A stretch of 37,224 bases of DNA from a virus (taxonomy: Duplodnaviria; Heunggongvirae; Uroviricota; Caudoviricetes), in the IMG/VR virus record IMGVR_UViG_2512047041_000009, positions 1 to 37,224 of that record. The stretch is one strand, 5' to 3'. Numbering within the stretch: position 1 is the stretch's first letter; every line of letters starts with the position of its first letter. Below are positions 12,001 to 15,000 of the stretch, one piece after another. The position numbers are program-made.

Positions 12001-15000
12001 AGAAGGCTGGCAACAGATGCAACGCATCTGTTGCCCGGCCAGCATGACAAATAACGAGAAATGAACGTTCGGTTACAGGAGCAGGTACCCACTGTCCTCC
12101 AACAATATTTCATCTTCATATCCGACGGAACAAGACTTACCCTGCCGGGATGTACAGAATAACAACAGAGTGATAATTAATTTCTGATGAAATAATCAGG
12201 GTGCAGAAGGACTAAAGATAAACGTTTTCTTCACGCCTTTACACGGCCTGTCCTTCTCAAATCGCCATTTTGCCATCGCCTTTACAACCTGCTCATCAAA
12301 CAAATGGTGCGGCTCTGAACGGATAAACTCAATTCGGGTGACAGTACCATCAGCACCAATATCAAACTTCACATCAACCCGTCCCTTTATATAATTTGCC
12401 GCTGCATAGGCCGGATATTGTGGTAATGCCTTAACCAACTGTCGGGGCATATCTGTTTTATGTTGCGTACAGCCCATAACCAGAGAAGACAACAAAATAA
12501 TTAACGGAAGATTTCTTTTCATTTTCATTCCCGGCACAGATAAGAATAAGTCTTATTCTAACAATGCCACCCTGTCGATCATTAATCCTCTGCTTAATGG
12601 CAACGACAATTATCCGGCTTAAATCACAAATCAGACACATGACATAACAGGGCTTGCGAGGTAACACATCGTCCGGTTTCTTCCACCATCGCACCGGACC
12701 AGCGACCATGAGGGGACAACGCCGCGCTCCGTTAACGCGGTAAACCCCGGTGTGTATCGTTTTTGATTATCCCCGCACACTCGCGCAGAGGAGTCTCCCT
12801 GTCGGGCTGCGGTCTCTGTTAATGCGGGGATACGGCGACAATACCGCGCATCAGCAAAACTTATTTCAGGCACTGAGTGCGGATATATTCCTGCGCCACT
12901 TCCAGTTGCTTCTGCATCGTCATCAACCGCTCTCTGAGAGTGAAATAATCCCGTTCAGCGGTGTCTGCCAGTCGGGGGCCGGTTGCATTATCCACGCCGG
13001 AGGTGCCGGTGGCTTCACGCACGGTACCGGGGCAGGTGGCGTTGATCCGCAGGCGCTTACGACCAGCGGCAACATCAGCGCGCAGAGTTTCATTTTCAGC
13101 TCTCGCATCGGCTAATTCCCTCGAGTATCTGGCATCAAGTGCAGCAACATCACGCTGGCGCTGCTGCATATCAGTAATGGTTGCATTTGCCAGCTCCAGC
13201 TCTCTGGCTTTTTTATCGCGCTGCGCTTTGTAAGTGATGGCGTTATCGCGGTAATGATTCAGCCCCAGACTAAGCGCACCACAGGCCACCAGCAGAGCAA
13301 TGATGACCACACACAGAACGCGGTTCATTTCACCACCAACGGATTGCCCAGATCAGAACAGCAATGGCTATAATACGAATGGCAAAGGCTGCCGCTCTTG
13401 TTAAATCCAGACAGGCTGGCGTCTCCACTTCAATGCCTTTCATAATGGACAACCTCAGAAAGAATCTTTTATACTTCCTCACAGGGAAAGCACCTCCCTC
13501 ACCATAATTTCTCCCTTGCCTTACTCAAGGTCAGAAAACACAAAACCCCGCTTGCAGCCAACAAACGGGGTTTTTACTTTTATTCACTTAGTTTTTGTCA
13601 GTTCGCAGGATTTCGTGTTATCCGCCCGCGTGGTCATTCCTCATTTTTCAGCAAAATATTCTGCTTATCTGTCGATACCCCAGCACGCCAGCGCGCTCTC
13701 CTGGTCACGACGGGATACCTGACCGTAACAGTTATTTGAGCGAATACGGCAGTCTCTGCCACCGTCCTTAATCCACCAGCGAATCGCTTCGCAGGCACCT
13801 TTTCGATCACCTGCATTAATTCGTCTGTAAAACGTCGACGGGAAACACTTACCGGGACCAATGTTGTACGGACAGAATGACGCGATCCCCGCTTTCTGGG
13901 GTTCGGTCAGCGGCACTCTGATGTTTTTCTCCACCCACGCCAGCGCTTTATCACGCTCAATGGCGTTAACCTGGTCGCATTTTTCCTTCGACAACTTCAT
14001 GCCCGGAACGACAGGTTTGCCATCCACCATGATGGCACCACGGCAGATGGTCCAGATACCTGCACCATCACGGTATGCCGTGGTGTGGTTGCCTTCCTTT
14101 TCATCCAGAAACTGGTCGAGAATGTCAGGCGCAGGCGCACCAGCGGCAATCAGCGCCAGAACGGCAGCCGACAGGCCGTATTTGATTTTGGTGTTCATGG
14201 ATATATTAAATATTCAGCCGCTGTCCCTGGCCCACTAAATACGCACTTTAAGATAAGTCAGCCCCGGATGAAGCCAGTAAGCCGGCACTTTTTTAAAGGG
14301 TGGAGTATTAAAATCACGAAGAAGAGCCTCCCGCACAATTGCATCCTTATCAGCACCACTGGCCAGCGCTTCAATCTCAGCGGCTACCTGAAGATATCCC
14401 ATGCAACGGCCAACGCGCTTCATCAGCCCCTGCTTTTTATTGTTCTTCAGGTAATCAATGGCAAATTCAATGAGCTCCTCACTGTGCTGGTGCGATGGAG
14501 GTGTTACTTTCCCATTTTCTGAGATGGTTATTTTCCCAGCATCACCGGATACAACAAAGGATGGCCGGTTACACTCCCATTCCAGCTCACTGAAATTATC
14601 ATTATGAATACTGAAACACTCTGCGAGATTTCTGCTCATCACTTTCCGACAATAATCGTCAAACGCAGCAAACTGCTCATCGCGGCGTTTTTCTTCAGGC
14701 CGCTGAAGATGCTCTTTCAATCGTGAAGCGCAGCTTAGATGCCCGCGCGATCAAGAATAGCTTCTTTCATTTCATCTGCTGCAAGCACCTCATTTTTTGT
14801 TGGGGCGCTTTTTTTCAATTCAGCGATATAGCGCTCCAGTTTTTCAATACGTGATTCAACATCATCTTTTTCTGACCGCAGTGTTGACGGCGGCATCTTC
14901 AGAGCATCAGTAATTCTTCCCGGTAGCTTTCCTTTGTAGGTTATCAACACATCCTGCGCCTCTAAAATTATGGGGCGCTTTTCCGGCAACGGTTCGTTCC

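Follow-up and report, generated by a model that had tools for sequence, protein, structure and literature searches.

Why does a lambdoid prophage carry, directly behind its lysis genes, a lipoprotein that resembles the C-terminal domain of TonB? The question is raised by a locus in a 37,224-nucleotide stretch of Caudoviricetes DNA (IMG/VR record IMGVR_UViG_2512047041_000009, positions 1 to 37,224; the window in what follows). An earlier interpretation, here called the sequence-only reading, had placed there a TonB-like lipoprotein gene preceded by a Fur-box-like palindrome, and had joined it with a TolA-like lipoprotein as a paired decoy against phages and colicins. We found that the product, as judged from its sequence and a structural model, has a TonB C-terminal (TonB_C) domain yet is not a TonB energy transducer, and that its gene recurs as a moron right behind the lysis genes in lambdoid prophages of E. 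coli, Klebsiella, Sodalis and Rahnella. Our preferred explanation, tentative and held with slightly less than even confidence, is that the lipoprotein may act as an outer-membrane-tethered decoy for Ton boxes that competes with TonB.

A TonB C-terminal domain on a predicted lipoprotein anchor

The gene and its product have the following features.

12196 to 12522, minus strand: coding sequence of the 108-aa TonB_C lipoprotein (RefSeq WP_000828068.1), placed by open reading frame call, RefSeq and phage 21 alignment
12528 to 12532, minus strand: Shine-Dalgarno-like GGGAA, 5 nt 5′ of ATG 12522, aligning with AGGAA of phage 21
12469 to 12522, minus strand: signal peptide with lipobox LVMGC (PROSITE-type lipobox pattern), codon of Cys18 at 12471-12469
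12211 to 12447, minus strand: TonB C-terminal domain, spanning residues 26-104 of the product and corresponding to E. coli TonB 153-231

The longest form of the open reading frame (12196 to 12537, minus strand) begins with GTG and contains in-frame ATG codons at 12528 and 12522. Because of the phage 21 alignment and the position of the GGGAA element, the start was assigned to ATG 12522 (protein MKRNLPL...). At annotation level the protein is already known: WP_000828068.1 carries the RefSeq name 'TonB family protein', and the copy in phage 21 was annotated in 2022 as 'TonB C-terminal domain protein'.

Residues 1-18, MKRNLPLIILLSSLVMG followed by C, make up a signal peptide in which a positively charged n-region and a hydrophobic h-region precede the lipobox; by this arrangement and the pattern [LVI][ASTVI][GAS]C the protein classifies as a lipoprotein. 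The lipobox was kept in every family member checked and none had Asp at position +2, in agreement with the lipoprotein call of the sequence-only reading. Thr at +2 in the window protein predicts sorting of the lipoprotein to the outer membrane.

The proposed TonB_C domain was likewise borne out by profile and structure comparison. Pfam PF03544 (TonB_C) matched with E=1.3e-14 (54.8 bits against a cut-off of 24.6) and TIGR01352 with 1.1e-14 (54.5 bits against 27.1), and phmmer against PDB returned the E. coli and Salmonella TonB C-terminal domains at about 5e-16. Query residues 28-106 aligned with E. coli TonB 153-231 without gaps and with 39% identity. An AlphaFold2 (AF2) model had a predicted local distance difference test score (pLDDT) above 94 over the TonB_C domain, and a Foldseek search with this model gave 1u07_A at a root-mean-square deviation (rmsd) of 0.8 Å over 79 residues; the TonB chains of the BtuB and FhuA complexes superimposed too (2gsk_B, template modelling (TM) score 0.91; 2grx_C, rmsd 1.0 Å). 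Residues Y163/P164, F180, F202, W213 and F230 of TonB are identical in the lipoprotein and Y215 is changed conservatively to Phe. The BFVD library of viral structures yielded no TonB_C fold.

The N-terminal membrane helix and the proline-rich spacer of TonB are absent. The N-terminus is the 18-residue lipoprotein signal peptide, and about 8 residues lie between the Cys predicted to be lipidated and the start of the TonB_C fold. Full-length TonB equivalog models (NCBIfam, NF008084 and others) scored 49-74 bits against cut-offs of 265-448, and matched at model positions ~152-240 only (the last ~85). Since it has neither membrane helix nor proline-rich spacer, the lipoprotein is predicted not to couple to ExbB/ExbD and not to transduce energy.

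A family found on chromosomes and in a phage moron slot

To define the family we used an exhaustive profile search together with a word-indexed search. The nearest relatives were other ~110-aa lipobox proteins, not TonB proteins; these lipoprotein homologues scored e-20 to e-24, above nearly all full-length TonB_C-containing proteins, the exceptions being a few long multi-repeat proteins that ranked higher through summed domain scores. The ~110-aa lipoproteins have the motifs YPxYAxAN, SEPxHLFD and AKWRFE in common. They came from Klebsiella, Raoultella, Pantoea, Erwinia, Salmonella, Pseudescherichia, Rahnella and Sodalis, were all named just 'TonB family protein', and were mostly encoded by single chromosomal genes with no phage genes nearby. 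On these comparisons the ~110-aa TonB_C lipoproteins are a distinct family in Enterobacterales. No conserved neighbour gene was present at any family locus examined.

Homologues were found in 1616 of 5426 complete E. coli genomes (about 30%), including ST131 and the type strain. Among these carriers 414 had the window type (type A, at least 95% identity) and about 1200 had type B, which has 74% nucleotide identity to the window type. Pairwise comparison of four E. coli variants (100%, 88%, 72% and 71% identity) gave ratios of nonsynonymous to synonymous substitution (dN/dS) of 0.10-0.19, with low values in the signal peptide and the mature part alike; the gene is under purifying selection.

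The position behind the lysis genes that had been read from the window was confirmed. The minus-strand order is holin, lysozyme (13665-14198), Rz/Rz1, TonB_C lipoprotein, HNH endonuclease, and small and large terminase subunits, with the spanin genes located as follows.

12861 to 13328, minus strand: Rz (i-spanin), upstream context of the lipoprotein gene
12923 to 13108, minus strand: Rz1 (o-spanin), embedded in Rz

Type A was found in Shiga toxin (Stx) 1a-converting phages, Lys8385Vzw and JLK-2012, and type B in classical phage 21, ev017, Perceval and PhiR phages. In phage 21 (OL657228) the gene lies 3′ of Rz/Rz1 and bor, just ahead of cos, and the slot between lysis and terminase genes also holds copies in a Klebsiella phage (40% identity), a Sodalis prophage and a Rahnella prophage (35%). 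The sequence-only reading had put the gene at the position of lambda bor. This was right as to the moron region, which is shared; bor is not replaced, because phage 21 has bor and the TonB_C gene side by side.

Several loci of the family had further features of their own. Phage 21 has three envelope- or iron-related morons, namely bor, the TonB_C lipoprotein gene and a sitBCD(A) iron/manganese ABC transporter block (sitABCD), the last located after the side tail fibre genes (L130/L137). In a Pantoea locus from a metagenome-assembled genome (L011, 900-4342), the family member, which has an excellent Fur box (TATAATGATAATCTTTATC), is inside an island where a glycine-rich pore-forming colicin-like gene (1223-2305) is accompanied by its putative immunity gene (900-1202) and by an integrase fragment. 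A gene for a DUF1440 (YagU-like) membrane protein directly adjoins the family member in Klebsiella and Raoultella chromosomes (L006/L008, ~4730-5315) and is also found in Klebsiella phage ST13-OXA48phi12.4 (L131, 277-903), about 3 kb upstream of the TonB_C gene. The promoter region of this Klebsiella phage copy matches that of a second Raoultella planticola paralogue (L010). The DUF1440 neighbour and the Raoultella-like promoter hint at phage capture of chromosomal DNA.

The palindrome, a putative promoter and possible Fur control

We then analysed the region upstream of the gene, where the following features were located.

12543 to 12559, no strand assigned: perfect 17-bp palindrome AGAATAAG-t-CTTATTCT, located 20 nt 5′ of ATG 12522 and a candidate operator
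12555 to 12563, minus strand: extended -10-like TGtTAGAAT, read from the sequence, in which TAGAAT is the promoter-proximal part of the left arm of the palindrome
12539 to 12557, plus strand: Fur-box-like 19-mer GATAAGAATAAGTCTTATT, a weak match with 13/19 positions of the consensus GATAATGATAATCATTATC

The palindrome is indeed perfect and upstream of the gene as had been noted, but it is not unique, since the window contains 13 perfect palindromes with arms no shorter than 8 nt and spacers no longer than 4 nt where ~2.3 are expected, an enrichment of about 6-fold over the Markov-1 expectation. Others are CAGTTAACATGTTAACTG at 11346-11363, between the HNH and small terminase genes, TTTCCACAGTCTGTGGAAA at 28882-28900 and ACTGCGGTGTTCACCGCAGT at 29526-29545. 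The 12543-12559 palindrome was intact in 74 of 80 near-identical viral loci. Furthermore, the block from -45 to -1 was 100% identical in the variant with 88% identity, though the adjacent flank and the coding sequence had diverged; this identity is compatible with either constraint or recombination. Phage 21 does not have the right arm of the palindrome, which coincides with an ~11-nt indel in the alignment of the two. A search for second copies, as expected for a multi-site phage regulator, gave only a 3-mismatch match inside a coding region. An ARG box or an RcsAB box was rejected for unfit spacing.

A consensus promoter scan in which a -35 was required found no minus-strand promoter at the locus. 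No terminator was detected between Rz and the lipoprotein gene, and expression of the gene by late read-through is therefore expected. The palindrome appears to cover the -10/start region, much as Fur boxes cover TATAAT in the orthologues.

For the Fur question we scanned the window with the consensus and with a matrix built from the orthologous boxes of the family. No site had 5 or fewer mismatches to the consensus, and 13/19 matches occurred at 17 sites against ~4 expected. With the matrix the 12539-12557 site scored 10.7 bits (rank 15 of 74,412 positions), compared with 17-26 bits for the orthologous boxes. The best matrix score of the window, 13.3 bits, belonged to GAAATTAATTATCACTCTG at 12166-12184 (minus strand), just 3′ of the stop codon of the lipoprotein gene; this site falls in the gap where the TonB-like gene and ylcI converge and probably reflects no more than AT-rich spacer DNA. 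Across the family the upstream regions compared with the Fur consensus as follows.

Chromosomal-type loci: Fur box in 13/15, with 2-5 mismatches, 20-48 nt upstream of the start
Sodalis prophage: Fur box with 2 mismatches (GATAATGATTCTCATTAAC)
E. coli type A (window): 6 mismatches
Klebsiella phage: 7 mismatches, a decayed form of the Raoultella box
E. coli type B: at least 8 mismatches, the phage 21 variant being without a Fur-like site
Rahnella prophage: 8 mismatches

In nearly every case the chromosomal box was the sole such site in 8-10 kb, and the boxes vary among genera (for example ATTGATAATTATTATCAAT in Klebsiella, and GAGAATGATTTTCATTATA and TAAAATGATAATCATTCTC in Erwinia). Fur control is thus predicted to be the usual state of the chromosomal family and to be retained in at least one prophage. 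For the window copy it is possible, with the chances leaning clearly against it. The idea that iron status governs the gene, raised from the palindrome of the window, thus fits the family better than the copy for which it was put forward. There is a precedent in late lambdoid regions, as pstx1 of Stx1 phages is a moron promoter with its own Fur site and is controlled by Fur (PMC10042803).

A TolA-like lipoprotein in the same prophage

About 6 kb away, at 18693-19121 on the minus strand, the prophage encodes the TolA-III-like lipoprotein that had been described, with a Pfam TolA C-terminal match of 3.8e-23 and lipobox LTTGC; the Prokaryotic Genome Annotation Pipeline (PGAP) names the product 'cell envelope integrity protein TolA'. 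Its start is preceded at a distance of 15 nt, at 19136-19154, by a weak Fur-like 19-mer, GATAATTGTTCTTGTTAAT (11/19; matrix rank 7). Of 30 related viral loci whose upstream DNA extended over 7.5 kb or more, 5 had the TolA-like gene. In the phage 21, Klebsiella, Sodalis and Rahnella segments no TolA-like gene was annotated or called, no explicit search for one having been made there. Because co-occurrence was limited to these five loci and phage 21 has the TonB-like gene with no TolA-like gene annotated or called, the paired Ton/Tol system of the sequence-only reading is not supported, and the two genes look like independent morons that coincide in one prophage.

A possible decoy for Ton boxes

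How might such a protein act? The TonB_C domain could pair strands with the Ton boxes of TonB-dependent transporters as TonB does, without pulling, and might bind the Ton boxes of incoming group B colicins as well. Competition with TonB would then reduce TonB-dependent irreversible phage adsorption and bacteriocin import, at the price of some loss of siderophore and B12 uptake. In this prophage the lipoprotein would be expressed by late-operon read-through and possibly also from its own extended -10 promoter; the palindrome over the -10/start region would be the candidate operator and may be a degenerate descendant of the family Fur box. Where Fur control applies, it would turn on the decoy when the receptors become de-repressed.

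The decoy model is built on what isolated TonB domains do. The solved complexes of TonB with transporters (2gsk, 2grx) used isolated C-terminal domain fragments, and an over-produced periplasmic TonB domain inhibits transport by TonB-dependent transporters (Howard et al. 2001, as cited in PMC9841981). As an isolated domain binds Ton boxes without energy and inhibits when over-produced, the lipoprotein would most simply be a TonB competitor. The dominant-negative fragments of that work, as cited there, are a motor-uncoupled laboratory analogue of the proposed mechanism; they were engineered, soluble and over-produced, whereas the phage and chromosomal lipoprotein is natural and predicted to be lipidated. 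Phages T1 and phi80 exploit TonB-dependent steps (PMC11658791), and T5 Llp is a phage lipoprotein reported to act on FhuA.

A number of points weigh against the decoy. Residues of TonB that contact the transporters are altered (R166 to Y, R158 to K), and the position equivalent to Q160 varies (L/Y/Q) within the family. TonB_C domains can gain other ligands, as in FusB, which binds ferredoxin (9hi3). The Fur match of the window copy is at background level, with equally good sites in unrelated AT-rich DNA, and no convincing -35 is present. Iron co-regulation of the chromosomal members suits a helper in iron uptake equally well, and a general TonB competitor should cost cells under iron starvation. 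Finally, the lipoprotein matched nothing meaningful among the PADLOC models, the single match being at chance level (E=0.022). TonB Q160L suppresses Ton-box mutants (PMC11658791); Leu at this position in the window protein was considered as a meaningful change and rejected because of the variation across the family.

A broader form of the decoy model can be drawn for the whole family, in which mobile tethered C-terminal domains would form a receptor-independent shield that caps Ton boxes against all TonB-dependent phages, colicins and microcins, is switched on by Fur just as iron starvation de-represses the receptors through which cells are vulnerable, and has repeatedly been captured by lambdoid phages as a lysogenic-conversion or exclusion gene. 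We place this form on the unlikely side.

Other roles for the lipoprotein

The same anchor and domain could instead make the lipoprotein an iron-acquisition helper, that is, a fitness moron whose TonB_C domain, tethered to the outer membrane, would promote TonB-dependent uptake when iron is limiting. By keeping periplasmic binding proteins or ligand-loaded transporters close to the membrane, or by organising transporters, it might give lysogens additional capacity for iron uptake. The TonB C-terminal domain has been reported to bind FhuD and BtuF, and the strong Fur boxes of the chromosomal loci imply co-expression with iron-uptake genes. Conservation on the chromosomes of six genera suggests a benefit to the host, and phage 21 carries the sitABCD moron besides the lipoprotein gene. 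However, no conserved partner gene adjoins the gene at any locus examined, the Fur box has been lost in most prophage copies, and free TonB periplasmic domain, as described in PMC9841981, inhibits and does not stimulate. We regard a helper as unlikely, and as the main rival of the decoy. It is also conceivable, if quite unlikely, that the TonB_C fold was kept and its ligand exchanged for peptidoglycan, another envelope protein or an imported substrate, in which case the protein would serve as an envelope anchor or a receptor-associated factor. The family motifs YPxYAxAN and SEPxHLFD, which stand in place of YPARAQALRIEG and AKPANMFERE of TonB, are in line with such re-targeting, as is the direct binding of ferredoxin by the C-terminal domain of FusB; against this, the lipoprotein retains both the YP motif and the aromatic cluster, the residues of known importance in TonB, and the locus context points to no specific alternative ligand.

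The original proposal, a Fur-regulated TonB decoy that works in a pair with the TolA-III lipoprotein to exclude TonB- and TolA-dependent phages and colicins, draws on the presence of both lipoproteins in this prophage and on the fact that TonB_C and TolA-III are the domains parasitised by colicins and phages. Its difficulties are the infrequent co-occurrence, the TolA-like gene being neither annotated nor called in the four phage and prophage segments named above, where it was not explicitly searched for, the 6-kb distance between genes that occupy separate moron slots, and the weak Fur match of the window copy; we consider it improbable. A further possibility is that the gene is a tonB fragment without function, or else an accessory of lysis. 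The label of PHROG 1267 is 'Rz-like spanin', the ev017 record bears the label 'Partial tonB-like membrane protein encoded within prophage CP-933N', and the gene directly follows Rz/Rz1. Purifying selection, the conserved lipobox, homologues on chromosomes outside prophages, a complete Rz/Rz1 pair already in place and a globular TonB_C fold unlike short proline-rich o-spanins all contradict it, and a dead-fragment or spanin-like role is effectively excluded.

Relation to known systems

A close known counterpart of the decoy proposed here is the C-terminal domain of TonB itself (E. coli TonB 153-239; 1u07, 2gsk, 2grx), which is homologous, with a fold within about 1 Å. The lipoprotein differs from TonB in having no N-terminal anchor, ExbB/ExbD-coupling helix or proline-rich spacer, in R166 and Q160, which are not conserved, and in its predicted lipid anchor, which is presumably in the outer membrane; it also belongs to a separate sequence family. 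T5 Llp and Cor of phi80/N15/HK022, which serve in superinfection exclusion, are likewise small phage-encoded lipoproteins of the outer membrane, and their target is a TonB-dependent receptor, reached from its periplasmic face. The window protein resembles them neither in sequence nor by profile, its Pfam and PHROG matches being to TonB_C only. Llp and Cor are specific for FhuA, whereas a binder of Ton boxes would be generic and would leave reversible adsorption unblocked.

Lambda Bor/Iss, too, is an outer-membrane lipoprotein encoded by a moron that lies between lysis genes and cos, but it is an unrelated protein (no Bor profile match in Pfam) and bor is on the opposite strand. The stx1 moron with pstx1 is a late lambdoid gene with two inputs, read-through and a promoter of its own that overlaps with a Fur site; experiments have shown that Fur controls pstx1, whereas for the TonB_C lipoprotein such control is predicted for relatives only and doubtful for the window copy. 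The A-type gene itself occurs in Stx1a phages. Rz1-type o-spanins are short, proline-rich and paired with an i-spanin, and the lipoprotein does not fall under this definition.

The host prophage and neighbouring genes

The window is a lambdoid prophage with 100% identity to E. coli O7:K1 CE10. Downstream of the lipoprotein gene it carries a convergent gene.

11863 to 12054, plus strand: YlcI/YnfO (DUF3950), convergent with the lipoprotein gene (Pfam DUF3950, 3.9e-20)

Of 80 viral loci, 75 had this gene at +664 from the A-type gene, or at +617 in the case of two more diverged loci; the remaining 5 gave no match, and the distance was fixed wherever the downstream sequence sufficed. YlcI/YnfO resembles a ribbon-helix-helix DNA binder (IRFPNHMIEQINIALE...FSAWVIEACRRRL) and is found also in phages that lack the TonB-like gene. 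The 3′ end of ylcI contains a perfect palindrome, ACAGATGCAACGCATCTGT, at 12013-12031.

On the other side of the gene, ~180 bp directly 3′ of Rz (12680-12860, minus strand) are ~90% conserved relative to phage 21 (L130, 3200-3380), and this stretch is conserved among phages whose TonB-like coding sequence is just 74% identical. Since more than 100 Stx phages without the lipoprotein gene carry this stretch too, it lies outside the moron. An Rfam search of 11800-13000 returned nothing that explains it, and an overlapping 80-aa open reading frame had no Pfam match.

The prophage is defective, with affected regions at ~275-1159, 4149-6733 and 8946-10608 (minus strand): its tape measure gene is truncated beside host btsS, and for the identical CE10 locus RefSeq annotates frameshifts in the genes for the portal and the large terminase subunit. 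The same prophage has a third moron for an envelope protein, a porin gene annotated OmpC (window ~20391-21473, plus strand; L001, 21392-22474), which is flanked by the Q antiterminator on one side and the tRNA/TolA-like region on the other.

Significance

What is new here is the recognition of a lipoprotein family, associated with Fur boxes, whose genes move between chromosomes and the moron slot behind the lysis genes, together with the decoy hypothesis. In the literature on phage- or prophage-encoded TonB-like proteins, TonB decoys and TonB_C lipoproteins we found no functional study and no report on iron-dependent expression or Fur binding, and a 2025 survey of TonB and TolA evolution does not mention lipoprotein or phage forms. 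The gene is nevertheless very common under its generic annotation, being carried by ~30% of complete E. coli genomes, by Stx1 phages and by phage 21. The family-wide Fur boxes provide a clean case of a regulated chromosomal gene that loses or remodels its operator after capture into a phage late operon.

As a helper, the lipoprotein would add a new accessory to the Ton system. Should it instead cap Ton boxes, it would represent a new, generic form of phage and bacteriocin exclusion, which acts at the energy-coupling step and not on a single receptor. A true decoy would be relevant to phage therapy with TonB-dependent phages, to the uptake of siderophore-antibiotic ('Trojan horse') conjugates, and to competition by colicins and microcins in the iron-poor inflamed gut.

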